From positions 64,001 through 128,000 of IMG/VR virus record IMGVR_UViG_3300028920_000026: 64,000 nt of DNA. One strand, 5' to 3'. Both the position numbers and the translations under genes were made by a program. Positions within the stretch are counted from its first letter, which is position 1, and every line of letters begins with the position of its first letter. This DNA comes from a virus. Shown here piece by piece: positions 315 through 60,332 of the stretch. The notes beneath the pieces were generated by a model. That model saw nothing but the letters and a program-made list of their open reading frames with translations. It was not told the DNA's origin and made no database searches.

Positions 315-1379
315 TTAGACGCGGAATAATCCTACGTCTGCTACGACCAGGTCACCTGTTCCTGGTCGCATTAGTACGTTCTCGTGGTGAACGTCGTTCC
401 AGCTCATGACGCCTCGCCTGTCGAGCCACTTGAGCGCCAGATATAGGCTGCGAAGCTTTGGGTTCTCGAGTCGTTCCTTCGTATCGGACAAGTCCATGTC
501 TGTGCTTTCAGGGAACGCCTGTCCCTTTTCGTCGAGGCCTGCAACGTCCGCAAGCCTGCGAGCAACGTTCTTCACGATGAATGTCCAGTTGTTGGCGCCC
601 TTCAGGTTCTTGAGCTCATCAAACTCCTCGTCAGAGATCCTATTGTCCTGCATCGCGTTGTTCAATGCGCTCAGAATCGGGTCTCCGATCGTCATCCTGA
701 ACCCGTAGTGTTGACGTGTTGGATCGTACGTCAGTGCCTCCTTGAGGAATTCGTGTGTCTTCAAGCGTGCCCAGTCCCGCTTTGAAACAACGATTCCGTG
801 GAACTTGTTGATCAGTGACCTCCTTGATCCGTTCCCGTAGCGCATGAGCTCACGCCAAAGCGCCTGGTCAACGTGCGGGATGATCTTTGATGCGATCTCG
901 TTCGCCCAGACACCGAGTTCCTGGTCGTTGCCTTGACGCCAGCCTTCGATGTTCGTCCCGCTTGGCATCGGAACAAGGAACTCCATGAGGATGGCGTAGA
1001 ACTCGATGCCTTTGTCGTCCTCGAGTGTCGCAAACGAGTCGATACGCGGCAGGTGCTTCGCTATGATCGGAGGTAGCTCGTTCCTGACCTCGTGTACTTT
1101 TTTGTACGTGTCAGCCTCGTCGGGATCGTCTGACAGCTTCAGCGCAAGGCGTTTACCGTCCTGTGTGACCTCCCACACGGTTCCGTACCCGCCGGCTCCT
1201 ACGAAGCCCGACTGGTCGCTGCCGCTCGGAACGATGTCAAGTCCGAGTTCGTCGATCGCGATCTGTAGGCGCTTCTTGTCCTCGAGCATCTCAGTCTTCT
1301 CAGAACTTCTGAACTCGTCGGGGGTGACTAGGCCTGCCTCTCGCAACAGATGCCTTAACTCTCCAAGGGCAATCCTCAT
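315..1379 (-). CDS. atypical protein kinase-like protein
   Basis: 354-aa ORF. Gly-rich loop GAGGYGTVW followed by ALK lysine. C-terminal WNDVHHENVLM...ADVGLF resembles the kinase catalytic loop (HRDxxxxN) and DFG, but the ORF ends right after the DFG-equivalent and has a ~250-aa insert between the G-loop and the catalytic loop. Confidence 0.45.
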   Translation of the reverse strand: MRIALGELRHLLREAGLVTPDEFRSSEKTEMLEDKKRLQIAIDELGLDIVPSGSDQSGFVGAGGYGTVWEVTQDGKRLALKLSDDPDEADTYKKVHEVRNELPPIIAKHLPRIDSFATLEDDKGIEFYAILMEFLVPMPSGTNIEGWRQGNDQELGVWANEIASKIIPHVDQALWRELMRYGNGSRRSLINKFHGIVVSKRDWARLKTHEFLKEALTYDPTRQHYGFRMTIGDPILSALNNAMQDNRISDEEFDELKNLKGANNWTFIVKNVARRLADVAGLDEKGQAFPESTDMDLSDTKERLENPKLRSLYLALKWLDRRGVMSWNDVHHENVLMRPGTGDLVVADVGLFRV

Positions 1380-1405
1380 GGCGTCATTTTAAGTACCCAC
1401 GCTCC

Positions 1406-2599
1406 GTGCATCGATGGTCACAATACTTAAATTGTGACGATCGGAGTGCCATGTCAAAAAAGAGGATCTTGCTGCTTCCCACAGGAAGCAGGACACTTCA
1501 GGTTGAACTCATCTACCGTCACACGGCGATGGAAAACAATGTGTTCGTACCCAGGCAGGGGACAATCCTTCCCAACGTAAAGAAGAAACTCGACTGGTCT
1601 GGCATATCTGTGTGGCCTACGCTCCTTTCCTCATCACCAGAAACGGACGAACTGAATATTGATGGTCCCGCAAGGGACTATCGCGTCAAGCACGGAGAGG
1701 ATAGCTTCGTGTCTCGCCAAAGAGCGCAGTTCGGGACACACAGGCCCGAGATGAAGGTGACAATTGTTGATGCTACAGAAATCATCAACATGGAGTTTGA
1801 CCTTTGCCACGTGTTTCGTGGGACGGGTAAGGGGACGAGCATCGACATGGCCAGGCGTCACATCTTCGATAAAGGAAACGTCCGGCGCTGGATCACGAGT
1901 GAGATGCGACCTTACAAGTATGCTGACCTCGGAAGCGACATCCATGATGACTGTCTGATTACGCAACCGTCTCCTGACGATATCGGAGCAAAGTTCAAGC
2001 GTCGGTGGAACCTATTTCCTTCTCGCGCGCAGCTGGTGGCATTGAACCTTCCGGACGATGTTCTGAGAGCATCCCAGAGGACAGGACTTGCTGGTTTCAA
2101 CCACAATTACCAGCGCAGGTATCCCAAAGAGTCAAAGATGTTTCACAACGCTGCTTCAATGTTGAAGCAGCAAAAGCTCGGCAAACTCGTCAATTATGGG
2201 GCGAACAAGCCCGGCGTCGGTTCTGACATCAGGACATCAAGGCCAAATGAAGGTAAACCAACTATCTCGTGCCGAGAGGCACTCGACATGAAGCGATCGC
2301 TGCGGTGTGTCGTTCACCTGAAGGGTGGCGATGTTGGGGGCGGCGTTGTGTGGTACACGATGCTTGTCGGAACACCGATGATTGTCCTGAGACACTACTA
2401 TAAGTTTACGGGCATGTACCGCTACTTTGAGGACGGGAAACACTGCATCGTCATAGATGACGCAGCAGGAGTCGTCAAGGCGGCTAGGGAGCTCAACAAC
2501 GACGCGGTGCTTGATACTTTCATCGGAAATATCATTGATCTTCGCGATCGGCTATGTGGAGCCGGAGACCTAGAGAGGTTCGTCGATGGATGTGTATGA
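1406..2599 (+). CDS. hypothetical protein
   Basis: 397-aa ORF, divergent from the kinase-like gene. No motif recognised. True start may be an internal ATG (~1452). Confidence 0.45.
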   Translation: MHRWSQYLNCDDRSAMSKKRILLLPTGSRTLQVELIYRHTAMENNVFVPRQGTILPNVKKKLDWSGISVWPTLLSSSPETDELNIDGPARDYRVKHGEDSFVSRQRAQFGTHRPEMKVTIVDATEIINMEFDLCHVFRGTGKGTSIDMARRHIFDKGNVRRWITSEMRPYKYADLGSDIHDDCLITQPSPDDIGAKFKRRWNLFPSRAQLVALNLPDDVLRASQRTGLAGFNHNYQRRYPKESKMFHNAASMLKQQKLGKLVNYGANKPGVGSDIRTSRPNEGKPTISCREALDMKRSLRCVVHLKGGDVGGGVVWYTMLVGTPMIVLRHYYKFTGMYRYFEDGKHCIVIDDAAGVVKAARELNNDAVLDTFIGNIIDLRDRLCGAGDLERFVDGCV

Positions 2600-3164
2600 A
2601 CAAATGAAGGTGTTTGGCATCGGATTGAGCAAAACGGCAACGAAAAGCCTCAGCGAGGGACTCGGGATGCTTGGACTCAATTCAGTCCACTGCCCATTCG
2701 ATGACAATGCGTATGCTCAGATCCTTAAAGGAAACTTCGACCTTGATGTCTTCAAACGTTTTGATGCCGTTGCCGACATCCCATGCGCACTGTGCTTTGC
2801 GCAGCTTGATGTGCTGTACCCAAACGCAAAGTTTGTCCTTACTCAGCGCGAACGTAAAAGCTGGCTGGATTCGTGTGAAGAACACTTCACAAAGCGAAAC
2901 CCAAACAAGAGGTCTGAGCTCCTCCGCGTCGCCGTCTATGGATGCGGGAAGTTCAATAGAGACCGTTTCGATTGGGTGTACGACAACTACGTTGCTTCGG
3001 TCAGGCGGCACTTCGATGGCAGACAAGACAAGCTACTCGAACTCAATATAATCGCTGGAGAAGGTTGGGCCAAGCTGTGTAGATTCCTCGACAGTCCAGA
3101 GCCAAAGAGAGGATTTCCGAGGATCAAGAACCCGCGTCAGTTTACACAGGCAAGGAAGAAGTAA
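2586..3164 (+). CDS. sulfotransferase-family protein
   Basis: N-terminal KVFGIGLSKTATKSL resembles the PAPS-binding P-loop of Sulfotransfer-type enzymes. First gene of a tightly packed, overlapping sugar-modification operon. Confidence 0.5.
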   Translation: MDVYEQMKVFGIGLSKTATKSLSEGLGMLGLNSVHCPFDDNAYAQILKGNFDLDVFKRFDAVADIPCALCFAQLDVLYPNAKFVLTQRERKSWLDSCEEHFTKRNPNKRSELLRVAVYGCGKFNRDRFDWVYDNYVASVRRHFDGRQDKLLELNIIAGEGWAKLCRFLDSPEPKRGFPRIKNPRQFTQARKK

Positions 3165-4462
3165 TGTTTGAGGCAGATGACATCATCAATGCGATCAACG
3201 ACTGTCGCGTCAAGGTCGGTGTTGTGGGACTTGGATACGTTGGTCTTCCGCTTGCACTCGCGTTTGTAAAGTCGGGTATCCGTGTGTTTGGGTTCGATAC
3301 AAACAGCGAGAGGGCCTGGAAGATCGGCGCGGGTGAGTCACCGATGAGTCACATTAGCCATGACAGCGTCATGAATGCGCTGTCGAGCGGGCTTCTGAGG
3401 ATTTCGAACAAGGCAAATACGCTTGAAGAATGTGATGTCATCCTTGTTTGTGTGCCGACACCGCTTGGCAAGAAGGGCGATCCAAACCTCGAAAGCGTGA
3501 CTGATGTGGCAAGGACGATCGCCAGGTTGCCAATGAAACCACGTTTGATTGTCCTTGAATCGACGGTCTATCCAGGCGCAACAGAAGGCTCGTTCAAGGA
3601 CGCTCTTGAGGAGGGCGGCGCGCGATGCGGAGAAGACTTTCTACTTGCGTTCTCTCCTGAACGTGAGGATCCGGGAAATCCTGACTTCGGCACAACATCG
3701 ATCCCAAAGATCGTTGGTGGATTCGATGATGTGGCAACGAAGGTTGCAACAGCGTTCTATGATGTTGCGTTCAATATAGTTGTTCCAGTCGAATCGCCCA
3801 AGGTCGCTGAGGCTGCGAAGCTCCTCGAGAACACGTTTAGGATGGTCAACATCGCGCTAGTAAACGAGGTGAAGGTCGCGTTCTACAGGATGGGAATCGA
3901 TCCACTCAGCGTGATCGATGCAGCATCAACGAAACCCTTTGGGTTCATGCGGTTCGATCCTGGCCCAGGCGTCGGAGGACACTGCATTCCGATCGATCCG
4001 CACTACCTGAACTGGTCTGCTGATAGCTACGGTAGACGCATCAAGATGATCGATGTTGCAGCTCGTGTAAATGGAATGATGCCTGCATACGTCATTGACA
4101 GGATCCGTGTCGGGCTTGCGTCTCGTGGTGAGGCAATCAGAGGTTCTCGTATCCTCATCGTTGGTGTTGCATACAAGCGCGGCGTGGATGATGTTCGCGA
4201 GTCCCCCGCGCTGGCGCTTATCGAGGTGCTTCGCGGGTTCGGTGCAGAGGTTGAATACCACGATCCATTGGTAAAGAACCTCGAACTGGGGGAGCTCGAG
4301 TTTTCTAGCGTCCCGCTGAGCGACGTGTCAAAGTTTTCGGCTGCTGTTGTGGCTACAGATCAGGAGCGTGTTGATTGGAACGTCCTCATAGAGAACGCGA
4401 AGCTCGTCATCGACGCCAGAGGTGTCTACAGAGGCGACCATCAGAACCTGGTGAGAGCATGA
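3164..4462 (+). CDS. UDP-sugar 6-dehydrogenase (UDP-GlcNAc/ManNAc dehydrogenase family, WbpA/WecC-like)
   Basis: N-terminal Rossmann VGVVGLGYVGLPLA. Catalytic GGHCIPIDP cysteine motif. ESTVYPG motif. 432 aa, typical of UDP-glucose/GDP-mannose dehydrogenase family. Confidence 0.85.
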   Translation: MFEADDIINAINDCRVKVGVVGLGYVGLPLALAFVKSGIRVFGFDTNSERAWKIGAGESPMSHISHDSVMNALSSGLLRISNKANTLEECDVILVCVPTPLGKKGDPNLESVTDVARTIARLPMKPRLIVLESTVYPGATEGSFKDALEEGGARCGEDFLLAFSPEREDPGNPDFGTTSIPKIVGGFDDVATKVATAFYDVAFNIVVPVESPKVAEAAKLLENTFRMVNIALVNEVKVAFYRMGIDPLSVIDAASTKPFGFMRFDPGPGVGGHCIPIDPHYLNWSADSYGRRIKMIDVAARVNGMMPAYVIDRIRVGLASRGEAIRGSRILIVGVAYKRGVDDVRESPALALIEVLRGFGAEVEYHDPLVKNLELGELEFSSVPLSDVSKFSAAVVATDQERVDWNVLIENAKLVIDARGVYRGDHQNLVRA

Positions 4463-5550
4463 AAGTTCCGTACAACGACCTATCACGTGTCAATGGTGAG
4501 TTTGTCGAAGAATTTCTTGAAGATGTTGTAGACATCATCGAAGGATCTTCGATCATCGGTGGAAGACACGTCGAAGAATTTGAAACAAGGTTTGGAGAGA
4601 TGGTTGGTAGGCCTGCTGCGGGGGTTTCGAACGGCACAGACGCGTTGGCCGTCATACTTCGTGCCCTAGAACTCGAACCCAAGGATGACAGGTACATCTA
4701 CTATCCAGCGAACACGTTTATTGGGTCGATCCTGAGCGGGATCAATATGGGCTTCAAATTCAAGCCGTTCGATGTGGAATTAACAACGTTAAACGCTCCC
4801 AGATCGTTCAGGCCTCCAGACGACGCACAGGCCGTGGTGCTTGTTCACCTCTATGGGTATGGAGTCAAGGGAGCGGGAACGCTTGCGACGAGGTGTCGAA
4901 GCGCAGGAATTCCACTCATCGAAGACTGCTCACAATCACACTTTCAGAAGGTTTTGGGTAGGGACGTCGGTACGTTCGGAGACGCAGGCTTCTTTTCATG
5001 CTATCCTGGTAAGAACTTGGGTGCTCTTGGGGACGCTGGCGTCATCATTGGTAGCGACAGCCTTGTTGCAAAGGCAAAGGCGCTGCGAAGCTATGGGTGC
5101 GTCAAGAAGCACGGCTACGAGTATGTTGGGTTCAACCATAGACTCGATGCGATTCAAGCTGCGTTCTTGACGCACAAGCTGAAGTACTCGACGCTTGATA
5201 TCAGCATGCGCAGAGACGTCGTAGCCGATCTGCTTCGTGCATGTTCCGGCAACGATGACATCCTCTCACTCGACGTTGGAATAGACGAGAGCGTCTGGCA
5301 CGTGTTTCCGGTGCTCGTTGAAGACAGGAACGCGTTCATTGAACACATGGAAGCGCACGAAGTACAGTGCGTCATTCACTATCCGACGGTCATCCACAAG
5401 GAACATACGTTCTCTCGGTGGGTTGTAGACGTAGAGTGCCCGATCGCTGAATACGCTGCGAAGCATGTCGTTAGCATTCCGTGTCATGGGCGGATGAGGG
5501 ATGAGGAGGTAAAGGTTGTCTGCAAAGCTATCGATTCCTTTAGGAACTAA
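4459..5550 (+). CDS. DegT/DnrJ/EryC1/StrS-family sugar aminotransferase (WbpE-like)
   Basis: ATGA overlap with upstream gene. Motifs NDLSRVN, GTDAL, and NHRLDAIQAA (PLP-dependent sugar aminotransferase signatures). Length ~363 aa. Confidence 0.85.
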   Translation: MKVPYNDLSRVNGEFVEEFLEDVVDIIEGSSIIGGRHVEEFETRFGEMVGRPAAGVSNGTDALAVILRALELEPKDDRYIYYPANTFIGSILSGINMGFKFKPFDVELTTLNAPRSFRPPDDAQAVVLVHLYGYGVKGAGTLATRCRSAGIPLIEDCSQSHFQKVLGRDVGTFGDAGFFSCYPGKNLGALGDAGVIIGSDSLVAKAKALRSYGCVKKHGYEYVGFNHRLDAIQAAFLTHKLKYSTLDISMRRDVVADLLRACSGNDDILSLDVGIDESVWHVFPVLVEDRNAFIEHMEAHEVQCVIHYPTVIHKEHTFSRWVVDVECPIAEYAAKHVVSIPCHGRMRDEEVKVVCKAIDSFRN

Positions 5551-6343
5551 GGTCGGAATCGTCGGCCTCGGCTATTGGGGGTCTATTGTTCGTCGTGTCG
5601 TTGGCAAGGAAAACGTCCACATGACGTACGACGTGAAGTACGACCCTACGGAACGCTATGAGAAGCTGCTTGTTGATTGTACACATGTCATCGTCGCATC
5701 TCCGGCGACGACACACGTAAGCATCGTAAATGATGCGATCAAACATGGGTGCCATGTGTTCTGTGAGAAGCCCTTGGGTGTTCATTCTTACATCGCGGAA
5801 CAGGCGTTCGATCTTGCGTTAAAGCGAGGAACAAAGCTTCACGTTGATTGGGTGTTTCGATACAACGAACAGGTGAAGAAGATCGTTGAACTCGACTGGT
5901 CGCTGCGTCGAGCAGACATGCTGCGCTTGAACAACGGTCCAGCGCGCCAAGACGTTGATGCAAAGCACGACCTCATGTGCCACGATCTCTCGATCATCCA
6001 CGCGCTCATGGAGCCAGAACGCTTTGTCGGGATGCAGATCGAAAAAACACAGAACGTTGAACACACTGCATCGTGTAGGATGTACGACGGGATATCGGAC
6101 GTTCGCATGCATGCAAGCTGGAACTTTCCTGCGAAGGTAAGGACGTGCGTCTTTACGTTTGATGAGGGGATAGTCGTGTGGGATGATTCGACGGGAATAC
6201 TACGAGTCAACGGTGATGATGTACGGTGCGATGGAAATCCTCCACTTACAAACAGCCTAGAATCGTTCTTCAACCATGATACTACGAGGGCATCGTATGA
6301 CGTGACGGCATCAGTCCTCAGAACGCTAGAGCGCGTCAAATGA
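5516..6343 (+). CDS. Gfo/Idh/MocA-family NAD(P)-dependent sugar oxidoreductase (WbpB-like)
   Basis: N-terminal VGIVGLGYWG Rossmann. EKPL motif. 275 aa. Positioned between dehydrogenase, aminotransferase and transferase genes. Confidence 0.7.
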   Translation: MSAKLSIPLGTKVGIVGLGYWGSIVRRVVGKENVHMTYDVKYDPTERYEKLLVDCTHVIVASPATTHVSIVNDAIKHGCHVFCEKPLGVHSYIAEQAFDLALKRGTKLHVDWVFRYNEQVKKIVELDWSLRRADMLRLNNGPARQDVDAKHDLMCHDLSIIHALMEPERFVGMQIEKTQNVEHTASCRMYDGISDVRMHASWNFPAKVRTCVFTFDEGIVVWDDSTGILRVNGDDVRCDGNPPLTNSLESFFNHDTTRASYDVTASVLRTLERVK

Positions 6344-7218
6344 TAGACGGGTACAAGGTCTTCGTCTGCTCGTTCGTCAGCAACTCAGTGACGACCGGAT
6401 ACGGGCCGATGATCGCTCCCGCGGTGAACTCGTGGTGTGATGTTTCGTACGTCGATAGGGTCGTTCTAGTCGACGGGATGTCAGATGACGACACGCGCTT
6501 GCTCGTGCCCGCTGATAGAAAGGTATCGATCGTCGACGGTCCAAGGTGGCCTGTAGATTCATGGTCGTGGAGGAACGTTATTGATGCAGAAAATACATTC
6601 GTCCAGGCTGTGCTCGACGATCCCCACCCGCGCAAGGTGTTTGCATACATGTCTATTGACAACGTCCTCTACCGTGATCACGCTGACCTCGCTGCGATGA
6701 GTAGGAGGATGATCAAAGATGATTTTGACTTTGTGATGATGCGTTTCGACAAGGCGTTCACACCTGCATACATCACGACTGATTATCCAGTCATGCCATC
6801 GAAGAACTGGTACATCTGCACGGCGACGCGTGTTGACGAGCGTTTCAAACCCACCAAGATCATCAATGAATGTGCCATTGATTACGAAAAGGCGGGTAAG
6901 ATCAGGGGAACGACGCACAGATTCAAGAGCGCACCGGTGTCATACGACATGTTCTTCTTCACGCGAGAACACGTTGAAGCAAAGGCGCAGCGCCACGTAG
7001 GGTTCCAGAACATGAAGCGCAAACCAACAATCAGCGAGCTCGTCGACAAACAGATGTCGAAGCTCAGGAAGCGCGGGATCAAGCTTCGCAAGGTATTGAT
7101 CGAACAACATCCAGAACGTATGCACGATGTTCTACAAAATACCCTAAGTGCTGAACACTACGGTTACAGTATGTTTGGATTGGTTGAGGGGGCAACTAAT
7201 GGCCTGAAGATCGTATGA
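6340..7218 (+). CDS. putative glycosyltransferase (GT2-like nucleotide-diphospho-sugar transferase fold)
   Basis: VVLVDGMSDDDT segment resembles the GT2 DxD/DDGSTD region. Weak call. Overlapping start and stop with neighbours. Confidence 0.35.
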   Translation: MIDGYKVFVCSFVSNSVTTGYGPMIAPAVNSWCDVSYVDRVVLVDGMSDDDTRLLVPADRKVSIVDGPRWPVDSWSWRNVIDAENTFVQAVLDDPHPRKVFAYMSIDNVLYRDHADLAAMSRRMIKDDFDFVMMRFDKAFTPAYITTDYPVMPSKNWYICTATRVDERFKPTKIINECAIDYEKAGKIRGTTHRFKSAPVSYDMFFFTREHVEAKAQRHVGFQNMKRKPTISELVDKQMSKLRKRGIKLRKVLIEQHPERMHDVLQNTLSAEHYGYSMFGLVEGATNGLKIV

Positions 7219-7835
7219 AGAAAGATGTAGTCGTTCTTGGAAAAGGAAACCTTGCTGTCCATGTAGCAAAGTACTTCCACGAAAAGTCTGATGATTATCG
7301 CCTTGTCTGTGTTGTACCGAACGATGATGAACCTGCGTGGGCTGGTGCCAAGCTTGCGGACTACGCCTACTTCAGGGATATCCCATGTGTCACCGTAAAC
7401 GATATCACAAACATTGACATTGCGTTCTCTATCTACCACGACAGGATCCTTAAGAAGGACTTCATCGACAGATGTGGAAGGATCTTCAACTTACACAATG
7501 GACCGCTTCCAAGATACCGCGGCGTCAGACCAGTGAACTGGGCCTTGAAGAACGGCGAAAACGAACACGGCGTGACCATCCATGAGATCAGTCCAGGTAT
7601 CGACGACGGTCCCATCATTGCTCAGGTGAAGTTTTCAATTTACCCTGAGATCGATGAGGTTTGGGATGTCTACCTGCGGTGCCTCGCGTTTGGAAAGCAG
7701 CTATTCGATTCAACGATTGAACGTCTAAACGACATAATTCCTCGTCCTCAGGACCACGGTCAAGCGACGATCTACTACTCAAAGCAGAATCATCTGCTTG
7801 GTGATCGCACCGACTGGCGGCGATGGGTGCAGTAG
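7215..7835 (+). CDS. formyltransferase (Fmt/ArnA N-domain-like sugar N-formyltransferase)
   Basis: NLHNGPLPRYRGVRPVNWAL ... HGVTIHEI..GIDDGPIIAQ matches the formyl_trans_N catalytic core (HxSLLPxxRG ... D.G.I). Confidence 0.7.
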   Translation: MKKDVVVLGKGNLAVHVAKYFHEKSDDYRLVCVVPNDDEPAWAGAKLADYAYFRDIPCVTVNDITNIDIAFSIYHDRILKKDFIDRCGRIFNLHNGPLPRYRGVRPVNWALKNGENEHGVTIHEISPGIDDGPIIAQVKFSIYPEIDEVWDVYLRCLAFGKQLFDSTIERLNDIIPRPQDHGQATIYYSKQNHLLGDRTDWRRWVQ

Positions 7836-7861
7836 CATTGAACTGATGGTACTGTACAATT

Positions 7862-8110
7862 ATGAAACGCGAAACGAGCGTCAAGTACAGGCTAAATTAT
7901 GAAGACATCGTAGCGCTCATCAGGACGAATGTTGCCGCCGAGGAGGGCGTCGGTGTTGAGCGCGTCGAGGTAACGCTTGATGCCAAGTCGCTTGGAATGG
8001 GACCATTCACGAGCACGAAACCCTTTGTTGCCGCTGAGGCAACCATCCTCACCGAAGGCGAAGCCGCTGAAAAAACAAAGCGAGCGTTGTTGCCACTACA
8101 AGGGCGCTAA
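7862..8110 (+). CDS. hypothetical protein
   Basis: 82-aa ORF after the sugar operon. Confidence 0.35.
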   Translation: MKRETSVKYRLNYEDIVALIRTNVAAEEGVGVERVEVTLDAKSLGMGPFTSTKPFVAAEATILTEGEAAEKTKRALLPLQGR

Positions 8111-8276
8111 CGTTAATATTATTGACATTTGCCCCCATCGCAGTGACACACTATAAGGGATTGTGATCAACGACAATACACGGTGTGTCGCGGTGATCAA
8201 ATTATATGTGTTGCTAGGGTGTCACTAGCGACGTAACTAACATGGTGGTTCATCAAGCCATAACTCATAGGGTTTA

Positions 8277-20504: not shown

Positions 20505-21356
20505 ATGAACCAAGCATCTAACTCGATGCAGGCGTATCTGCAGTCGCTCTACAAATTTCCACGTCTGACCCATAAGGAGTTGTGTGAAGCGTATACGAAC
20601 ATGCACGCTACCACAACAACAGAAGGCGAAAAAGAACGTCTTCGTAACATGATCACCCAGTGCAATCTCAGGCTGGTTGTGAGCGTCGCGAAGACGTACA
20701 ACCACGGGCAGTTCCCGATGTTGGATCTCGTACAGGAAGGCAACATCGGCCTAATGAAGGCAGTTGAGCGCTTCGACCATACGCGTGGCTACCAATTCAG
20801 TACGTTCGCAACGTGGTGGATCCGTCAGGCAATTGGACAGTACGTTCAGAAACACAAACGCACGATCCGCATGCCCTCTCACGCGTTGACCGCCCAGAAG
20901 CGCCTATTACAGGCTACACAGGAGTTTCGCGAGGAGTTTGGAGTTGAGCCGACAGAAGCTGAGGTCTTTGACAGGGTCTCTGAGATTTCAGAGACTGTCA
21001 AGAAGGCAACGATGTTTGCAGGAAGAGGAACGGTCTCGCTTGAGGCACCAGCATACATCGCAGGAAAGTCGAGCAGCAATGGTCCCCATGGTGAGACGAC
21101 GATTGGATCGACCATCGAGGATCACACCCCAGGTTCCGACCCGTTCCTGAACTGTTCAGATGCCGAAATCATCAAGATCGTAAGGGAGGTGATGCATCAC
21201 CTCCCTCCAAAGGAAGCCGCAATCATCCGCCTGCGTTTTGGCCTCGTTGAAGAAAAGACGAACCATGAAAAGTATCCTGTGACGCAGGAAGAGGTCGATG
21301 GCATCTCTAACGGAGTAGGATTAGAGGATGCTAGCGACAATGATAACACTGCTTGA
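20505..21356 (+). CDS. sigma-70 family RNA polymerase sigma factor
   Basis: Region 2 LRLVVSVAKTY...LDLVQEGNIGLMKAVERFD..GYQFSTFATWWIRQAI. Region 4-like AAIIRLRFGL. 283 aa. Confidence 0.85.
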   Translation: MNQASNSMQAYLQSLYKFPRLTHKELCEAYTNMHATTTTEGEKERLRNMITQCNLRLVVSVAKTYNHGQFPMLDLVQEGNIGLMKAVERFDHTRGYQFSTFATWWIRQAIGQYVQKHKRTIRMPSHALTAQKRLLQATQEFREEFGVEPTEAEVFDRVSEISETVKKATMFAGRGTVSLEAPAYIAGKSSSNGPHGETTIGSTIEDHTPGSDPFLNCSDAEIIKIVREVMHHLPPKEAAIIRLRFGLVEEKTNHEKYPVTQEEVDGISNGVGLEDASDNDNTA

Positions 21357-24467: not shown

Positions 24468-26093
24468 ATGGGTACGAGATACGAAGGAAAGACCATGGCA
24501 AGTAAAAGGAAGAAGAAACTTTCGCCTGAGGAACTTCGCAAGGCCGAAGAACGCCGAAAGGCAGGAGACGAGTTCGAACTCTCTCCACACCTGCTGGCGT
24601 TCCTTTCGGAGAGTCCGTTCTACGCCGAGATCTCACGACGTATTCACAAGCGTCGTACACGATCGATCCCAACACTCGCTGTGATGTGGAACCGCGAGCT
24701 AGACACGCTTGAACTCATCTACAACCAAGACTTTTTGGCTCCCCTCTCCCCACAGGAGATCAGGGGTTGCCTGATGCATGAGTACTTACACCTCATCTTC
24801 GGTCATCTCGCCGCTCGTCGGCGGGAACCTCCGCGGATGTGGAACATTGCGACGGACCTTGCAATCAATTCGCTGATCTACAAACAGAACGGCGCTGCAA
24901 GCTGGAGCAAAACGAACAAGCCGCTTCCACGATGTGGCCTTGTCCCTGGGCAGCCCGTCTGGCTGGACGATGAGGGCCGTACGATGACCTCGGATGAGAA
25001 GGCAGCACGGCCGTTGGCTGCTCTCATCGAGAGCATGAAGCCTGAGCTTGCGTCAGAGAACTACTTTAATCAGCTGATGGCTGAGGCCGAGAAACACAAG
25101 AAGGAGCAGTGTCCGATGTGTGGTGGCTCTGGCATCGTCTCGCCAGCAGACAAGCCCGGAGATGATGAGGACGACGATGACGGTGAAGGTTCCAAGGAGA
25201 GCCAGCAGGGTGACGAGGCGGAGTCGAGCGAGAGCAAAGGCGAAACGAGTGACGAAGGCCAGGACGAGGACGATGGGAACGGAAGCAGTGGTCATCAGCA
25301 CTCCGACGATGGGTTGCCCTGCCCGTGTTGTGGGGGACAAGGAAAAACGCCTGGTGGCGGAAGCGACATCGATTCGTTCGATGATCATTCCTTTTGGGAC
25401 GCAGTCACTGAGGACGTGCGTGACTACGTTGAGGCTCGCGTCAGAGACGTCATCGAGGGTGCCGTCAACGTTGCCGACCAGCAGCAGAACGGGTGGGGCA
25501 GCATTCCCGCAGAGATGCAGGCCGCGATTCGCAAGTCGATCTCACGCATCATCCCATGGCGCACTGTGCTACGGCAGTTCGTCGGAACTCTCCTCCCAGG
25601 TGATCGCGCAACGAGCATCAAGCGGATTAATCGTCGCTATCCATACGTTCATCCGGGCGTCAAGCGCGGCCGCACCGTAAAGCTCCTCGTCGCGATCGAC
25701 CAGTCTGGATCGGTTAACGATGAGATGCTTGCAATCTTCTTTGCGGAACTGGCGAGTCTCACTCGGCACACGGAAATCGACGTGCTACCGTTCGACTTCA
25801 GCGCTTCTCATGAGAGCATCTACAAGTGGCGCAAGAATCAGCCTCCTCCCAAGGGACGTGTATGCTGCGGTGGTACGAACTTCGATGCAGTAACCGAGGT
25901 TGTGAACGATCCACGGAATCGCGGCCGGTGGGACGGCGTCCTCATCGCGACGGACGGTGAGTGTGGCAAGCCAGGCGATACGCGCATCAAGCGCGGTTGG
26001 GTCATTGCGCAGGATCACAAGCTGTACTTCGACACCAACGAACTCCAGGTCTTCGTTAGCAAGGAGAGGCCGATGAAGGGGGCATGGCGATGA
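24468..26093 (+). CDS. DUF2201-type protein: N-terminal HExxH metallopeptidase-like domain plus C-terminal VWA domain
   Basis: MHEYLHLIFGH (HExxH). CPMCGGSG and CPCCGGQG zinc-ribbon pairs flanking a highly acidic linker. VAIDQSGSV MIDAS-like DxSxS with downstream VWA-like segment. Confidence 0.7.
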   Translation: MGTRYEGKTMASKRKKKLSPEELRKAEERRKAGDEFELSPHLLAFLSESPFYAEISRRIHKRRTRSIPTLAVMWNRELDTLELIYNQDFLAPLSPQEIRGCLMHEYLHLIFGHLAARRREPPRMWNIATDLAINSLIYKQNGAASWSKTNKPLPRCGLVPGQPVWLDDEGRTMTSDEKAARPLAALIESMKPELASENYFNQLMAEAEKHKKEQCPMCGGSGIVSPADKPGDDEDDDDGEGSKESQQGDEAESSESKGETSDEGQDEDDGNGSSGHQHSDDGLPCPCCGGQGKTPGGGSDIDSFDDHSFWDAVTEDVRDYVEARVRDVIEGAVNVADQQQNGWGSIPAEMQAAIRKSISRIIPWRTVLRQFVGTLLPGDRATSIKRINRRYPYVHPGVKRGRTVKLLVAIDQSGSVNDEMLAIFFAELASLTRHTEIDVLPFDFSASHESIYKWRKNQPPPKGRVCCGGTNFDAVTEVVNDPRNRGRWDGVLIATDGECGKPGDTRIKRGWVIAQDHKLYFDTNELQVFVSKERPMKGAWR

Positions 26094-32987: not shown

Positions 32988-33749
32988 ATGATATTTAGAA
33001 ATATCATGACGCCTAAAGAGAAGGCAGAACACTTCCATGCGCTCAACAAGGACGGAAAGTGGAAGCCACGGGATCTCAAGAAGTTCGACGTCAAGAAACG
33101 TAACATCGAAGGACTCGGTGAGAGGTACTACGCGATCCCGGAGTCTCGAGAGGCGTACGAACGCCTGCAGTCGAGCAGAGGTATTGGTATCGCAAGCTGG
33201 GATGACATGGTCAAAAAGGTGAAGGGCCATGGGCTATCGCCGTTCCAGAAACAGCTCGTCCAGCAGGTAAACGGATACGCAAAGACGCACCCTGTCTATG
33301 ACAATGAGAAGGGATACGTTGAGGTTGGGTTCAGGTACCCTGCGATGATGGAACACTTCAAGAAGAAGTTCAAGTTTGTCAGAGGGTACGATATCGCTCC
33401 ACCTTCGATCGCAGTCGCTCAGCACCTTGGCTACGACGTCCACTTACACGACATCAGTGATGTAGGTGACCCAATCGACCTTAAGGACGTCAGGCTTCTC
33501 TGTGCACACGAGGTGTTTGAGCATACACCAAACCCCATTGACGCACTAACAAAGGTCTACAATGCTGCCGACGATGGAATGTTCATCCACCTCAGCGTTC
33601 CACTGCAGTCAGGTCGTCCGAAGATCCAGTTCGCTCACCTGTGGGAGTTCAAGAAGGGCGACATCGAAAAGATTCTTAAAAGAGTCGGTTGGAACGTTAT
33701 CAAGGTCAAGAAGGTGAATCACTCAGAGGTTGCCTTCGCAAAGAAGTGA
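32988..33749 (+). CDS. putative class I SAM-dependent methyltransferase
   Basis: YVEVGFRYP (motif I-like), DIAPPS, LLCAHEVFEHTPNP (motif resembling the FDxVxxxxVLEH block of Methyltransf_11/12). Confidence 0.5.
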   Translation: MIFRNIMTPKEKAEHFHALNKDGKWKPRDLKKFDVKKRNIEGLGERYYAIPESREAYERLQSSRGIGIASWDDMVKKVKGHGLSPFQKQLVQQVNGYAKTHPVYDNEKGYVEVGFRYPAMMEHFKKKFKFVRGYDIAPPSIAVAQHLGYDVHLHDISDVGDPIDLKDVRLLCAHEVFEHTPNPIDALTKVYNAADDGMFIHLSVPLQSGRPKIQFAHLWEFKKGDIEKILKRVGWNVIKVKKVNHSEVAFAKK

Positions 33750-35173: not shown

Positions 35174-35965
35174 GTGAACGCAATACTTACATCTATGCTC
35201 ATGACAGTGGAAGGGCTTCGTAGCCTCGTTTACGAGGCGATCGCGGACGTTTGGACTCCCGAAAAGCTTCGCCAACGCCGTGGATTTAGTCCAGATGTTG
35301 CAAAGATGCTGATGACAGCGCATCCCAAGAAGATGGCGGAATTAGGTCTTTCGGAGGATGATATTGAGAACCTTCCGATGGTTGGTGAAGGTACGAAGGG
35401 CATCGCATTCGACCTTGGCGACAAGGTTCTAAAATTCACTGACGATGCTGAAGAGGCTGCTTCCTCGGCTGCATTGATGAACGTAAACGATCCAATCTTT
35501 GCAAAGTACTACAGTGTTTTTCGCTTCGGACAAACACCAAACTTTTTTGGTATCGTCCTTGAGAAGCTCGTCCCGTTGGAAAAAAGCGAGGCGGACGAGC
35601 TAGACAACCTGCTTCAGGAAGTGAAGTTCCACGCTTTTCTTTCGTTGGGAAACTACGATCCTGACGAGATGACAAAGATCTACATGGAAAAGGTGAAAGA
35701 CGGAGTTGGAAGGCTTGAACTCAGCGAACGAGAACGCCGCGAGATGATTCAAAGGTTTTTTGACAAGTGGGCAAAGGTGATGCGTGACTTCAGGATCTAC
35801 AGGATGATGAAGGCGCTTCAGAAGGCAGGCATTCAGTTCGGCGACTACCACGCCGGCAACATCATGAAGCGCCAATCGACAGGTGAACCCGTCATCATCG
35901 ACCTTGGGTACTCTTCGGGCGCAAAGGGTCAGATCGAAACAGTAAACGAATCTTATGGTGCCTGA
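35174..35965 (+). CDS. hypothetical protein
   Basis: 263-aa ORF. Stop TGA lies inside the acceptor stem of the following tRNA. Confidence 0.5.
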   Translation: MNAILTSMLMTVEGLRSLVYEAIADVWTPEKLRQRRGFSPDVAKMLMTAHPKKMAELGLSEDDIENLPMVGEGTKGIAFDLGDKVLKFTDDAEEAASSAALMNVNDPIFAKYYSVFRFGQTPNFFGIVLEKLVPLEKSEADELDNLLQEVKFHAFLSLGNYDPDEMTKIYMEKVKDGVGRLELSERERREMIQRFFDKWAKVMRDFRIYRMMKALQKAGIQFGDYHAGNIMKRQSTGEPVIIDLGYSSGAKGQIETVNESYGA

Positions 35966-37095: not shown

Positions 37096-37765
37096 ATGAA
37101 GGAAGGTGTCATCATCGAAATCACTGCCGCAGAAGGTGGTGCAGACGCAAAGCTCCTGGTCGCCGACCAGCTTCGAGCGTATACAAACGTCGCTTTGCGG
37201 AGGCGTCTTTGACGCTACGCTCATAGACGAGCGACCAGGGTTCATCAGCGTAGCGTTTGAAGGAAAGGGCGTAAGGTCGCTCTTTGCTGACGAACCTGGT
37301 GGACATCGCTGGCAGCGTGTTCCTCCAACAGAAAAGCGTGGCCGTGTCCACACATCAACGGTTACAGTCTCCGTTGTTGATATGAACGATCGTTCTGTTG
37401 AACGACTCGATATGAACGACATCGAGGTCACGGTCGCTCGTGGAAGTGGACCAGGAGGGCAGCACAGAAACAAGACAGAATCGTGTGTGACAGTCGTTCA
37501 CAGGCCCACAGGAACAACCGCCAAGGCAGACCTAAGAAGCCAACACAGGTCCCGTGAAATGGCACTCAAGGTACTCGAAGGGCGCCTGAAAATTGCAAAA
37601 GAGCGCCAGATGATGGATAATATGGCGCGGGAAAGAAAAGCTCAGAAAGGCTCCGGGATGCGTGGCGACAAGGTCAGAACGTACAGAGTACGCGATGATG
37701 TTGTTACAGACCATCGCACCGGCAGGAAACTGAAGCTTTCGTCCTGGTTGAAGGGTGATTGGTAA
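37096..37765 (+). CDS. class I peptide chain release factor lacking domain 1, expressed through a prfB-type +1 programmed frameshift (join 37096..37209, 37211..37765)
   Basis: RBS AAGGAG then ATG 37096. Frame-1 segment IEITAAEGGADAKLLVADQLRAYTNVA matches the RF domain-2 start. It ends at CTT TGA C (37207-37213), preceded by GGAGG at the E. coli prfB SD spacing. The +1 frame continues DATLIDERPG ... GGHRWQRVPPTE (RF1-like PxT region) ... GSGPGGQHRNKTES (GGQ) ... TDHRTG. Protein homology is continuous across the shift. Confidence 0.75.
37199..37213 (+). promoter_or_regulatory. programmed +1 ribosomal frameshift site (GGAGG CGT CTT TGA C)
   Basis: Same slippery CUU U GA C heptad and internal Shine-Dalgarno spacing as the autoregulatory site of bacterial prfB. 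Confidence 0.7.
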
Positions 37766-37768
37766 AAG

Positions 37769-38179
37769 ATGAAGATCCTTGTGTGCGGTTCTCGGTTCTG
37801 GAAGGATATCGAGACGATTGCGGACGTGCTTTCGACATTCTCTCCTGACACGACTGTGGTACACGGTGCGTGTCGGGGCGCTGACTTCATAGCCGGTGAG
37901 GTCTCTAAACAGCTTGGTTTCACGGTGCGCCCGTACCCTGCAAACTGGAACAGATTCAAGGTGAAACACAAAAATCCAGCTGGCATCATCAGAAACCAGG
38001 AGATGCTCGACAAGGAACACAGGTACGACGATCCGATCATACTGTGCATCGCGTTCCATGACGACCTTGAACGATCTGCAGGAACAAAGGACATGGTCGA
38101 ACGAGCATCCCGAGCAGCAATCCCAGTTAGGAACGTGAGGTCGTCCGATGCAGAAACAAGACAAAGGGACAATCGATAG
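37769..38179 (+). CDS. SLOG-fold protein (DUF2493/YspA-like)
   Basis: ILVCGSR ... VVHGACRGADFIAGEV matches the DUF2493 Rossmann-like SLOG core (VGGxRxF ... GGAxGAD). 136 aa. Confidence 0.5.
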   Translation: MKILVCGSRFWKDIETIADVLSTFSPDTTVVHGACRGADFIAGEVSKQLGFTVRPYPANWNRFKVKHKNPAGIIRNQEMLDKEHRYDDPIILCIAFHDDLERSAGTKDMVERASRAAIPVRNVRSSDAETRQRDNR

Positions 38180-38600
38180 GTTCATAAACGATTTTGCGTT
38201 TCTTAGTAACTTCCACCCAAGCACGATCAGGTGGCGCGGGTTGAAGTGGAAGACAGTCGAACACGCCTACCAGGCTGCAAAGACGCTCGACGAGAAGCAA
38301 CAGCAGATGATCCACGAGTCAAAAACACCTGCTGAAGCAAAGAAGCTTGGTAGGGCTGTAACGATTCGTCCTGACTGGGATGATGTCAAGTTGTCAATCA
38401 TGGAGGAACTCATTCGTCTCAAATTTGAGAATCCACTACTTCGATATGCGTTACTTCAAACTGGTGAAAGGCCGCTTGTTGAAGGAAATCATTGGAATGA
38501 CACAACGTGGGGGATATGTAGAGGTAAGGGACAAAACTTACTTGGTAAGATTCTTATGAAAGTTCGTGATGAGTGTCGTGACGAAGAAATTGCTTCCTGA
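38148..38600 (+). CDS. NADAR-family protein (YbiA-like, DUF1768)
   Basis: FLSNFHP ... VEHAYQAAK ... W.DVKL..M......KF motifs typical of NADAR domain. Overlaps upstream gene by 32 nt. Confidence 0.65.
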   Translation: MQKQDKGTIDRFINDFAFLSNFHPSTIRWRGLKWKTVEHAYQAAKTLDEKQQQMIHESKTPAEAKKLGRAVTIRPDWDDVKLSIMEELIRLKFENPLLRYALLQTGERPLVEGNHWNDTTWGICRGKGQNLLGKILMKVRDECRDEEIAS

Positions 38601-46004: not shown

Positions 46005-46454
46005 ATGGTCTACCAGAACAGGTTTATTCTAGCGGCCCTTCGAGCGGTACGAGAGACTGGTTTTGACCCTCGTCTAAAGGCACATGTGGGTGCTGTCATC
46101 ACACGTGGTGGCTCGATCATAAGCGTTGCTACGAATACGTACGGGACCGATCCCTATACGCTGGCTCGTACAGAGAACGGATACGTAGACTCTGTGCATG
46201 CCGAGGTGAACGCGATCATGCGAGTCCGCCACAAGGTTGATCTTGATGGGACCAAAATGTGGGTTGTACGCCTGACAAAACCAAATCCAGATCTTTTAAC
46301 TGACAGTATGATTGCTCTTGCAGAACCTTGCAACGTATGCAAGAACGTGATCATGCGACATGGTATCAGGCGTGTATATTACACGATTGACGAACAGACA
46401 ACAGCGTGTTGGCGAGTTCCACGAATTGACGTACCGCGCAAACATCGACCTTAA
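46005..46454 (+). CDS. CMP/dCMP-type zinc deaminase (ComEB/Cd-like; TadA-like function not excluded)
   Basis: HAEVNAI ... PCNVCKNVIMRHGIRRVYY zinc-binding H(A)E / PCxxC signature with the GIxxVxY tail typical of dCMP deaminases. Confidence 0.65.
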   Translation: MVYQNRFILAALRAVRETGFDPRLKAHVGAVITRGGSIISVATNTYGTDPYTLARTENGYVDSVHAEVNAIMRVRHKVDLDGTKMWVVRLTKPNPDLLTDSMIALAEPCNVCKNVIMRHGIRRVYYTIDEQTTACWRVPRIDVPRKHRP

Positions 46455-47320
46455 AAGGTATAATTGTACCATCCTCTAACAACATATTCACGTATTTCAG
46501 CTTCTGACAGCGCACGTGAAATGATACGTACATCTTCGATTCGTCCTTGAAAATTTCGATCTGTTCTGTCTGGTGGGCCACCGATACACCACCCCCATGT
46601 TGTTGGATTTGCCCACGATAAAGTACCAGCTGTCGCACTACGCCCTATTAACGTTCCGTTAATGAATCCATATTGGCCATTTGTGTCTGATACATGTGCA
46701 ATGTGATACCACTTATTTGCACCGTTTGTCCAATCGCTAATTGTTCCAAGTGTAGCCTGTGAGCTATTCTTTCGACAGATAAAGTTTCCTGAACTATCAA
46801 TACCACCACCAATCGTATTTGACGGATACGAATTGTTTGCGCGCCAAACAATAATTCCCCATGTTCCTTGCGACGTTGTTGTTGGATAAATCCACGCCAT
46901 CCACGTAAGTTCGTCCCAACCGGTAAGATTTGAGCTCAATGGTGCTTGTAGCTGAGCCGCTTGAAACAACATTGATTTATCAATCATTCCATCTTGAGAC
47001 GGTGTCACCGTTCCCGCATCAACCGACCATTCAGATTCGCCAGCAGAACCACGATTTGTAACAGTCGTAGATGATTCATTTAAATAAATGGCGATGACAT
47101 GATCATCATCGAGCGAAACCCTGGGCGCTGTGTCCTTTGACACAGCCTCGACGATTGTTGAATGAGCTATAATCGTTTCAGGAGCGTAGTTTCCTGCTAT
47201 ATCGGGTGAACTATGCGTCCATGTGATCTTTTGGTACGTACTTTGAGAAATAGCACGCATCTTGTACGTTGTAAGTGGAAGCATCGTGTTACGTGATCCT
47301 GAACATTTCTGCAATGACAA
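46451..47320 (-). CDS. LamG-like (concanavalin A-like lectin) domain protein, probable receptor-binding or tail-fibre tip
   Basis: WMAWIYP ... GIIVW ... FQGRIEDVRIISRALSEAEI jelly-roll LamG signature. AT-rich compared with flanks. Confidence 0.55.
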   Translation of the reverse strand: MSLQKCSGSRNTMLPLTTYKMRAISQSTYQKITWTHSSPDIAGNYAPETIIAHSTIVEAVSKDTAPRVSLDDDHVIAIYLNESSTTVTNRGSAGESEWSVDAGTVTPSQDGMIDKSMLFQAAQLQAPLSSNLTGWDELTWMAWIYPTTTSQGTWGIIVWRANNSYPSNTIGGGIDSSGNFICRKNSSQATLGTISDWTNGANKWYHIAHVSDTNGQYGFINGTLIGRSATAGTLSWANPTTWGWCIGGPPDRTDRNFQGRIEDVRIISRALSEAEIREYVVRGWYNYTF

Positions 47321-51564: not shown

Positions 51565-51597
51565 TAGCGCACTCTATCTATGATTTCGACTCAATGA

Positions 51598-56747: not shown

Positions 56748-56753
56748 AATACG

Positions 56754-60323: not shown

Positions 60324-60332
60324 GCTTTACGC

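Follow-up and report, generated by a model that had tools for sequence, protein, structure and literature searches.

We describe a seven-gene operon at positions 1451-7835 of a 64,000-nucleotide (nt) stretch of viral DNA, which corresponds to positions 64,001 to 128,000 of the IMG/VR record IMGVR_UViG_3300028920_000026 (the whole stretch is referred to as the window). Comparison of the seven predicted proteins with sequence families and solved structures indicated that the operon probably encodes a self-contained sugar-decoration module, combining a sugar-nucleotide pathway with transfer logic; we put the probability of this reading at about 0.6. Aquatic T4-like phages are known to carry glycan gene islands, of which the operon is a compact variant. 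Its distinctive features are formyl chemistry, a sulfotransferase and two probable new families of glycosyltransferases (GTs).

A seven-gene operon and its predicted sugar-nucleotide pathway

A preliminary description of this DNA had proposed a six-gene operon for nucleotide-sugar modification. Its enzymology largely stood, and the gene count, the orthology with the Wbp pathway and the uniqueness of the operon were corrected. All six open reading frames (ORFs) were recovered on the plus strand with the same boundaries, and a 382-amino-acid (aa) gene upstream brought the total to seven:

g1, 1451-2599, plus strand: 382 aa, first gene of the operon, probable divergent GT-B-type glycosyltransferase
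g2, 2586-3164, plus strand: 192 aa, Sulfotransfer_4 family, putative sulfotransferase dependent on 3'-phosphoadenosine-5'-phosphosulfate (PAPS)
g3, 3164-4462, plus strand: 432 aa, nucleotide-sugar 6-dehydrogenase of the N-acetylhexosamine subgroup (WecC/Cap5O/TviB/WbpO-like)
g4, 4459-5550, plus strand: 363 aa, DegT-family sugar aminotransferase dependent on pyridoxal phosphate (PLP), putatively C3-specific
g5, 5516-6343, plus strand: 275 aa, short Gfo/Idh/MocA oxidoreductase, putative nucleotide-sugar 3-dehydrogenase
g6, 6340-7218, plus strand: 292 aa, GT-A-fold (GT2-like) glycosyltransferase of a small, previously undescribed family
g7, 7215-7835, plus strand: 206 aa, sugar N-formyltransferase dependent on N10-formyl-tetrahydrofolate, catalytic core only

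These genes form one translationally coupled operon. g1 shares 14 nt with g2, and the public assembly also lists g1 as a gene of 382 aa. The overlap of every boundary previously noted among the other six genes was borne out, with 1 nt shared by g2/g3 (3164), 4 nt by g3/g4 (4459-4462), 35 nt by g4/g5 (5516-5550), 4 nt by g5/g6 (6340-6343) and 4 nt by g6/g7 (7215-7218). The start codon of g5 is TTG, with a GAGGAGG ribosome-binding site just upstream. The operon start adjoins a divergent minus-strand gene (315-1379) and its end lies 26 nt before the next ORF; a promoter and terminator scan around the operon revealed nothing distinctive. Its GC content (49-53%) and GC content at third codon positions (GC3) are like those of the rest of the window, which argues against a recent, unameliorated insertion. 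Pfam searches on each ORF confirmed five enzyme-family assignments and left the ORF at 6340-7218 (g6) without a family at threshold.

The three UDPG_MGDP_dh domains (PF03721, PF00984 and PF03720) were all found above cut-off in g3 (E 2e-37, 3.2e-26 and 4.7e-19), which also matched the NCBIfam nucleotide-sugar dehydrogenase model TIGR03026 (E 9.4e-111, 370.5 bits against a cut-off of 189.8). Its catalytic Cys274 lies within GGHCIPIDP (residues 271-279), aligned to GGHCLPKDP of 4r16, the Pyrococcus horikoshii dehydrogenase of uridine diphosphate (UDP)-N-acetylmannosamine (ManNAc). This enzyme was the best match in the Protein Data Bank (PDB; 1.5e-60), followed by Cap5O (7e-51) and 3g79 (4.6e-48). 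Matches to UDP-glucose dehydrogenases were at about 1e-38 or weaker, so that g3 groups with N-acetylhexosamine dehydrogenases, including a dehydrogenase of the N-acetylgalactosaminuronic acid (GalNAcA) type. The more precise name UDP-N-acetylglucosamine (UDP-GlcNAc) 6-dehydrogenase, given in the preliminary description, was not established: the top NCBIfam equivalog models, archaeal UDP-ManNAc dehydrogenase (226 of the 750 bits required), TviB (207 of 592) and WecC (186 of 459), all stayed far below cut-off.

The aminotransferase g4 matched PF01041 (DegT_DnrJ_EryC1; E 2.2e-58, 198.7 bits against a cut-off of 19.8). Its closest solved relatives were 5u1z (3.6e-57), which we take to be WlaRG, and 7n63 (5.5e-57), with QdtB at 6.8e-47 and WbpE at 3e-30; another relative, 2oga, is presumably DesV. 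The Schiff-base Lys185 lies within YPGKNLGALGDAG, and the same motif was aligned in 5u1z. Among its ten best solved relatives, QdtB (3frk) and WbpE (3nyu, 3nu7, 3nys) are C3 aminotransferases by name, and 7n63, 7b0d and 3uwc are solved relatives that carry generic names only. Scores with 4-aminotransferases were at least 20 orders of magnitude weaker than those of the best solved relatives. We therefore regard g4 as a putative C3-specific sugar aminotransferase.

The oxidoreductase g5 matched PF01408 (GFO_IDH_MocA; E 6.2e-12, 46.7 bits against a cut-off of 24). Its sole near full-length NCBIfam match was archaeal UDP-GlcNAc 3-dehydrogenase (4.7e-11, residues 36-253), at 42.8 bits against a cut-off of 450, and its best PDB match was GnnA, also a UDP-GlcNAc 3-dehydrogenase (7bvj, 9.7e-6). 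The motif GLGYWG and residues E84-K85-P86, D152 and H156 are invariant in its four-member family and were aligned to the DLMIHDL motif of GnnA. Structures of WlbA or WbpB were absent from the 59 PDB hits of g5 at E<=10. When a profile of the four family sequences was searched against the PDB, WlbA (3q2i) appeared at 1.9e-5 (rank 58), as compared with 3.5e-11 for GnnA (7bvj).

The formyltransferase g7 matched PF00551 (Formyl_trans_N; E 1e-20, 74.7 bits against a cut-off of 26.1). Its top four solved relatives are all sugar 3-N-formyltransferases: 7n7a (6.6e-21), WlaRD (4lxq, 3.7e-20), described as 'a sugar 3N-formyl transferase', 5uin (9.6e-19) and 4xd1 (5.6e-18), the N-formyltransferase of thymidine diphosphate (TDP)-3-aminoquinovose. 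Asn92, His94 and Asp130 are conserved and were aligned to the FNxH and GIDxG motifs of WlaRD and 7n7a. A metagenome scan found at least 334 stretches that encode a g7 relative, and identity is about 50-57% for the best 80. Neighbours were counted at the 23 loci where the relative is flanked by 3 kb or more of sequence on each side. A Gfo gene lay within 3 kb in 18 of these loci, a DegT gene in 17 and both in 16; a dehydrogenase was present within 5 kb in 4/23, and no relative of g1, g2 or g6 was found in the 23 loci. The solved relatives, the intact Asn-His-Asp triad and the Gfo and DegT neighbours of the family together support the 3-N-formyl product predicted in the preliminary description.

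The trio formed by Gfo, the Fmt-type formyltransferase and DegT occurs widely in metagenomes from soil, fresh water and the sea (80 loci, L017-L096). Locus L064 (5560-9966) is a bacterial-type polysaccharide locus, in which a Bac_transf gene stands immediately upstream of Gfo-Fmt-DegT and GT2 genes are also present. In the viral contig L014 (IMGVR_UViG_3300030333_005321), Gfo, Fmt, DegT and a dehydrogenase are contiguous and accompanied by GT1, GT2 and epimerase genes. Two genes upstream of this block, an NAD_synthase-family gene (5472-6266) presumably resembles the WbpG amidotransferase of the Pseudomonas aeruginosa 2,3-diamino-uronic acid pathway, suggesting that amidino or amide versions of the sugar may also exist. 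A genome-contig scan with g7 gave two weak partial matches only. Literature searches returned no paper on the Gfo-Fmt-DegT trio or its predicted 3-formamido product, and nothing usable on the predicted sugar.

Collectively, these assignments suggest a pathway starting from a host UDP-N-acetylhexosamine, most likely UDP-GlcNAc. g5 would oxidise C3 of this substrate using nicotinamide adenine dinucleotide (NAD+), g4 would convert the 3-keto group to a 3-amine with PLP and glutamate, and g7 would formylate this amine using N10-formyl-tetrahydrofolate. g3 would oxidise C6 to a uronic acid, either before or after C3 oxidation, amination and formylation. The predicted product is UDP-2-acetamido-3-formamido-2,3-dideoxy-hexuronic acid. 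Transfer of this sugar, possibly with a second one, to an acceptor would be the task of g6 (soluble, GT-A) and g1 (probably GT-B), and g2 would use host PAPS to sulfate either the sugar or the finished glycan. The substrate, step order, sulfation target and acceptor given here are those we infer from the sequences. Two other routes were considered. A kanosamine-type route (NtdA matched g4 at 2.3e-19) is less likely, since g3 groups with the N-acetylhexosamine dehydrogenases. Pathways to 3-formamido-quinovose or -fucose linked to deoxythymidine diphosphate (dTDP-Qui3NFo/Fuc3NFo) would require a 4,6-dehydratase and a 3,4-ketoisomerase; both are absent, and these pathways were rejected. The lack of both enzymes in the operon also implies that the keto sugar must come from the Gfo-type dehydrogenase.

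Probable glycosyltransferases, a putative sulfotransferase and related phage islands

The Pfam match of g6 to Glycos_transf_2 (13.2 bits) was below the cut-off of 23.3. Its family was found by an exhaustive HMMER search; 4 of its 19 members match PF00535, with a best E of 0.0087. g6 has a GT-A fold with the nucleotide-binding motif DxGSxDxT and an aspartate at the DxD position, and its earlier description as GT2-like held at the level of the fold. A 4,752-aa protein (P0011), which scored 5e-18 in the HMMER search, was rejected as a relative. It is made of 21 near-identical repeats of about 200 aa, each giving about 29 bits and 27% identity to g6 residues 121-192, and its score was most likely summed over the repeats.

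For g1, Pfam gave no match at threshold (Glyco_trans_1_2, E 0.076), and only 4 proteins were related at E<=0.01 among 5.8 billion protein clusters. Alignment by hhalign of a six-member g1 profile with a GT1 (GT-B) profile built from the same islands gave a probability of 90.5% (E 1.4e-6, 103 columns). The match spans residues 206-317, the region that holds VVHLKGGDVGGGV...GTPMIV, and we consider g1 a probable divergent GT-B glycosyltransferase. Word-indexed searches of the protein clusters with g6 and g1 returned the queries only, tblastn against 50,697 GenBank phage records found no relatives of g6 or of the g1 type (P0030), an IMG/VR scan with g6 gave no match, and PDB profile searches with both families gave no meaningful match. 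The g1 family is very small and phage-only. g1 and g6 probably define two new phage-restricted glycosyltransferase families, seen so far only in uncultured phages.

Relatives of g6 were found on uncultured phage-type contigs, inside large glycan islands. In the islands L002, L004/L005 and L012 (IMGVR_UViG_3300020214_002535), a g6-like gene occurs together with DegT and short Gfo genes, and a Hexapep acetyltransferase gene is adjacent or nearby; a g1-family gene is present in L004/L005 and L012 and was not found in L002. L006/L007 contain g6, DegT and g1 relatives, and L009-L011 contain g6 and g1 relatives without DegT or Gfo. Relatives of g1 (in L004/5, L006/7, L009-11 and L012) were always accompanied by a g6 relative. 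g4 is 44-48% identical to the DegT proteins of L002, L004-7 and L012. Short relatives of g5 (273-287 aa, 34-37% identity) adjoin DegT in L002, L004/5, L012 and L078. The related contigs also carry PhoH, sigma-factor and PDDEXK genes, and tape-measure-like and baseplate-wedge genes follow the island immediately in L009. Such a layout agrees with the 'host recognition cluster' reported for pelagimyophages and cyanomyophages (PMC7029224). The pairing in L002, L004/L005 and L012 of the same GT-A, DegT and Gfo genes with a Hexapep acetyltransferase agrees with the earlier proposal that a formyltransferase has replaced an acetyltransferase. These neighbourhoods support a model in which the operon uses a phage-specific four-gene core (GT-A, DegT, Gfo and g1), with the acetyltransferase exchanged for a formyltransferase.

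The sulfotransferase g2 matched PF17784 (Sulfotransfer_4; E 8.8e-34, 117.7 bits against a cut-off of 22.8) over profile positions 1-214 of 215. Its PDB relatives were SgdX2 (8y9p, 1.4e-9), the sulfotransferase 5tiz and 9kf1. The motifs 13-GLSKTATKS-21 and 86-TQRERKSWLDS-96 align with the family motifs GxxRTGTxS and RD..W..S; in 8y9p, GLSKTATKS corresponds to GFGRTGTAS and RERKSWLDS to RDPVQWHRS. The putative PAPS loops are therefore recognisable, if non-canonical, and compatible with PAPS binding. No homologue of g2 was found in the GenBank phage records (tblastn), in IMG/VR or in the metagenome scan, and literature searches on phage sulfotransferases gave nothing usable.

A second phage sulfotransferase was found near the formyl trio. 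The marine contigs L078 (Ga0209434_1000187) and L089 (Ga0209756_1000698) carry a Sulfotransfer_1 gene (5767-6564 in L078; 3.5e-13), unrelated to g2, three genes upstream of Fmt-Gfo-DegT and surrounded by genes for a methyltransferase, epimerases, a short dehydrogenase and GDP-mannose 4,6-dehydratase. Both contigs share PfkB, short dehydrogenase, epimerase and short Gfo genes and a post-island late-sigma-like gene with L004, L009 and L012, and by this gene content they are the same kind of phage glycan island. The presence of two unrelated sulfotransferases near the same trio in phage islands suggests that sulfation is part of the glycan chemistry, and L078 and L089 suggest that the pairing recurs in aquatic phages.

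Phage setting, alternative readings and candidate acceptors

The window is part of a 331,213-bp metagenomic contig (ena:ERZ27252253:k141_1101516), and the same contig was found in the Logan assemblies of SRR8554435. The phage context assumed in the preliminary description was upheld by matches of window proteins to PHROG families for a T4-type baseplate wedge, tail fibre, T4-type RNA ligase and ATP-dependent DNA ligase. The source looks like an uncultured, tailed, T4-like jumbo phage that appears to be lytic; no integrase was seen in the window. Megablast of positions 1400-8200 against the GenBank phage records gave no match and hence no close DNA relative, and the DNA ligase of the window is at most 31% identical to that of any deposited phage. 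The 'moraphage' jumbo-phage lineage (PMC12619734) was considered as a relative and no tie to the contig was found. A tail-fibre and baseplate block occupies 46451-63676 on the minus strand, with tail-fibre proteins at 48736-60323, and encodes very large proteins of 942, 1398 and 1189 aa. Laminin_G_3/concanavalin-like lectin domains were present in two of the large proteins of this block and in a 277-aa protein. These lectin-domain proteins are candidate receptor-binding proteins and candidate targets of glycosylation.

Several observations weigh against the proposed module or parts of it. The match of g5 to GnnA is weak (28.6 bits), and the family profile ranks several uncharacterised Gfo proteins higher. 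g3 is nearest to UDP-ManNAc dehydrogenases, yet the operon has no 2-epimerase. g4 and g7 are nearest to enzymes of dTDP-6-deoxyhexoses, and the nucleotide and the sugar could differ from those proposed. The assignment of g1 depends on one hhalign match, and its single-sequence AlphaFold2 model has a predicted local distance difference test (pLDDT) score of 31. About 37 kb separate the operon from the tail-fibre genes of the window, and the published view of such marine myophage islands is modification of host O-chains (PMC7029224). The phosphosulfate-loop motif of g2 departs from its family (K for R, A for G), and this departure (SKTAT as compared with RTGT) also bears on whether g2 sulfates the glycan of the operon at all. 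It could instead act on another small molecule or host factor, have a sulfate-then-eliminate role or be catalytically inactive. The solved members of its family act on small molecules, and the searches of GenBank phages, IMG/VR and metagenomes found no close homologue with informative context. We consider these options improbable, given that g2 is translationally coupled to glycan genes on both sides and that, in the equivalent island L078/L089, an unrelated sulfotransferase accompanies the same formyl trio.

The order of the steps could also be that of the classical Wbp pathway, with g3 acting first as a WbpA-type UDP-GlcNAc 6-dehydrogenase, g5 following as a WbpB-type, 2-oxoglutarate-coupled enzyme on UDP-GlcNAcA, and then g4 and g7. 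The four reaction types of the operon are those established for Wbp/Wlb, g3 falls among the N-acetylhexosamine dehydrogenases, in the subgroup of TviB and WbpO-like enzymes, and WbpE is a significant relative of g4 (3e-30). We nevertheless doubt this order. As described above, g5 retrieved no WlbA or WbpB structure, its family profile placed them 58th, behind GnnA, and g4 is much nearer to QdtB and WlaRG than to WbpE. Furthermore, most metagenomic Gfo-Fmt-DegT trios have no dehydrogenase nearby (4/23 have one), and the dehydrogenases of the related phage islands are short and distant, with 25-28% identity to g3. Both observations indicate that the C3 chemistry is generally independent of a uronic-acid substrate. 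The trio of g3, g5 and g4, described earlier as WbpA/WbpB/WbpE-like, thus kept its reaction types, and its orthology was not supported, g5 being nearer to GnnA and g4 to WlaRG/QdtB. Support for C6 oxidation as the first step (the Wbp order) does not exceed that for C3 chemistry as the first step (the GnnA/Methanococcus order).

As for the acceptor, we tentatively favour a phage structural protein made in the cytoplasm. None of the seven operon proteins has a transmembrane segment. No initiating phosphoglycosyltransferase, flippase or polymerase was found in the operon or the phage islands, and the bacterial locus L064 has Bac_transf. Some islands adjoin tail genes (L009). Virion glycosylation has precedents in giant viruses (PMC9614988) and in mycobacteriophages (cited in PMC12619734). 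A host envelope glycan is a serious contender, although we think it somewhat less probable. In that case g1 and g6 would act on undecaprenyl-linked intermediates of O-antigen, capsule or S-layer, and the phage would block superinfection or avoid trapping of its virions. The lipopolysaccharide (LPS)-type gene islands of pelagimyophages and cyanomyophages have been interpreted in this way (PMC7029224), in L064 the same Gfo-Fmt-DegT trio is part of a classical polysaccharide locus that also has Bac_transf and GT2 genes, and peripheral GT-A and GT-B enzymes that use lipid-linked acceptors likewise have no transmembrane segments. On the other hand, the operon and the related phage islands contain no initiating transferase, flippase, polymerase or ligase, and a surface change in the short cycle of this seemingly lytic, T4-like phage, with no integrase in its window, would need host export to keep pace. 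DNA is a highly improbable acceptor. Glycosylation of hydroxymethylated bases by g6 and/or g1 would serve to evade restriction, but the DNA glycosyltransferases known from phages have a thymidylate-synthase-like hydroxymethylase or a 5mYOX dioxygenase encoded within about 10 kb, and neither appears in the Pfam annotation of the 64-kb window. The g6 motif is the ordinary DGxSxDxT of GT2 enzymes, not the R...DDD...EDY/F of DNA glycosyltransferases, and its match to TarP is a generic GT-A match. The related islands contain up to about ten GT and methyltransferase genes, suggesting a complex glycan.

Other genes of the window were observed outside these subjects. The divergent gene at 315-1379 (minus strand) has by eye a protein-kinase/APH-fold look (GAGGYGTVWEV...ALKL, HHENVL, ADVG), and Pfam reported APH at E 0.035 only; a second APH-like ORF is found at 35174-35965 (plus strand, 8.7e-4). 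ARAGORN predicted 37 tRNA genes between 15214 and 43955 on the plus strand, in several clusters covering most amino acids, a complement that is very large even by jumbo-phage standards. A 219-aa protein with PCRF and RF-1 domains (37106-37765, plus strand) is a short homologue of peptide-chain release factors, and is directly followed by YAcAr and NADAR domain proteins (37769-38179 and 38148-38600). Together with the tRNA array, these genes suggest that the phage manipulates translation; the ORFs of the window read normally under the standard code. The annotations of a 541-aa protein (24468-26093, plus strand) conflict, with PHROGs indicating an HNH endonuclease (phrog_1314, 4e-47) and Pfam DUF2201_N and DUF2201. 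A Sigma70_r2 protein (20505-21356) and a dCMP deaminase (46005-46454) are encoded on the plus strand. A class-I methyltransferase-like ORF (32988-33749, plus strand) and, some 0.5 kb ahead of the window start, a gene of the nucleoside 2-deoxyribosyltransferase family (L001, 3208-3726) could bear on nucleotide or DNA modification.

Comparison with known systems and significance

The operon has four reaction types in common with the Wbp/Wlb systems (WbpA-WbpB-WbpE-WbpD-WbpI of P. aeruginosa and WlbA-D of Bordetella), which make UDP-2,3-diacetamido-2,3-dideoxy-glucuronic or -mannuronic acid: C6 oxidation, C3 oxidation by a Gfo/Idh/MocA enzyme, PLP-dependent transamination at C3 and N-acylation of the 3-amine, starting from a UDP-N-acetylhexosamine. 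It differs in the acyl group, which would be a formyl group added by an Fmt-type enzyme rather than an acetyl group added by the hexapeptide protein WbpD. In addition, its oxidoreductase is not detectably WbpB/WlbA-like, its aminotransferase is nearer to QdtB/WlaRG, no 2-epimerase is present, and the genes are found in a phage with a sulfotransferase and two atypical glycosyltransferases. Direct C3 oxidation of UDP-GlcNAc by a Gfo/Idh/MocA enzyme followed by transamination is known from GnnA/GnnB, which serve the synthesis of lipid A with 2,3-diamino-2,3-dideoxyglucose (GlcN3N), and from the Methanococcus maripaludis route to UDP-GlcNAc3NAc(A), in which C6 oxidation comes last. 7bvj is the best solved match of g5, and the archaeal 3-dehydrogenase and UDP-ManNAc dehydrogenase are the top equivalogs of g5 and g3, respectively. 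These scores are far below the cut-offs (42.8/450 bits for g5 and 226/750 for g3), g5 is shorter (275 aa as compared with about 300-320 aa), and the amine would be formylated rather than acetylated or acylated.

Transamination at C3 followed by formylation is the chemistry of WlaRD/WlaRG from Campylobacter jejuni, 7n7a/7n63 from Helicobacter canadensis, QdtF/QdtB and FdtF, and the operon keeps both the Asn-His-Asp residues and the PLP lysine of these enzymes. WlaRD/QdtF-type pairs use dTDP-3-keto-6-deoxyhexoses supplied by a 4,6-dehydratase and a 3,4-ketoisomerase, neither of which is in the operon. They belong to pathways that deoxygenate C6, whereas the operon would oxidise it, and g7 has no C-terminal extension (206 aa as compared with 274-417 aa).

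Among viruses, the marine T4-like pelagimyophages and cyanomyophages have a 'host recognition cluster' with LPS-type genes (PMC7029224). Like the phage described here, they are lytic T4-like phages with glycosyltransferases and nucleotide-sugar enzymes. The islands L004-L012 and L078, taken as a group, share g1, g6, DegT and short Gfo genes with the operon and adjoin tail or late-sigma genes. In contrast to islands of 15-40 kb, the operon has seven compactly arranged genes located about 37 kb from tail-fibre genes, and it contains a full-length dehydrogenase, a formyltransferase in the place of the acetyltransferase and a Sulfotransfer_4 gene. With systems of virion glycosylation, the operon shares virus-encoded cytoplasmic glycosyltransferases and the lack of lipid-linked export machinery; giant viruses also encode full pathways for amino-sugar nucleotides. 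Capsid and tail-tube glycans of mycobacteriophages were reportedly described by Freeman et al. in 2023. The operon differs from these systems in that the g1 and g6 families have no detectable relatives among GenBank phages and that the virion is only a candidate acceptor here.

Sequence data revealed the glycan islands of aquatic T4-like phages years ago, and to our knowledge none has been resolved biochemically. The operon represents a minimal, tractable version of such an island, made of seven soluble, translationally coupled proteins with a predictable product. It points to a recurrent link between sulfotransferases and formyl-sugar chemistry in phages, and the Gfo-Fmt-DegT trio predicts 3-formamido sugars in many environmental bacteria. 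It is unlikely, though conceivable, that every part of the most far-reaching proposal holds, namely that the phage builds a sulfated, N-formylated 2,3-diamino-uronic acid and places it on its own virion (or, less probably, on DNA) by means of two phage-only glycosyltransferase families. If the phage does decorate its own virion in this way, prokaryotic viruses would have their first virus-built sulfated glycan, and the virion coat chemistry would be of a new type. With the virion as the target, virion glycosylation would extend from mycobacteriophages and giant viruses to aquatic T4-like myoviruses, including this jumbo phage.

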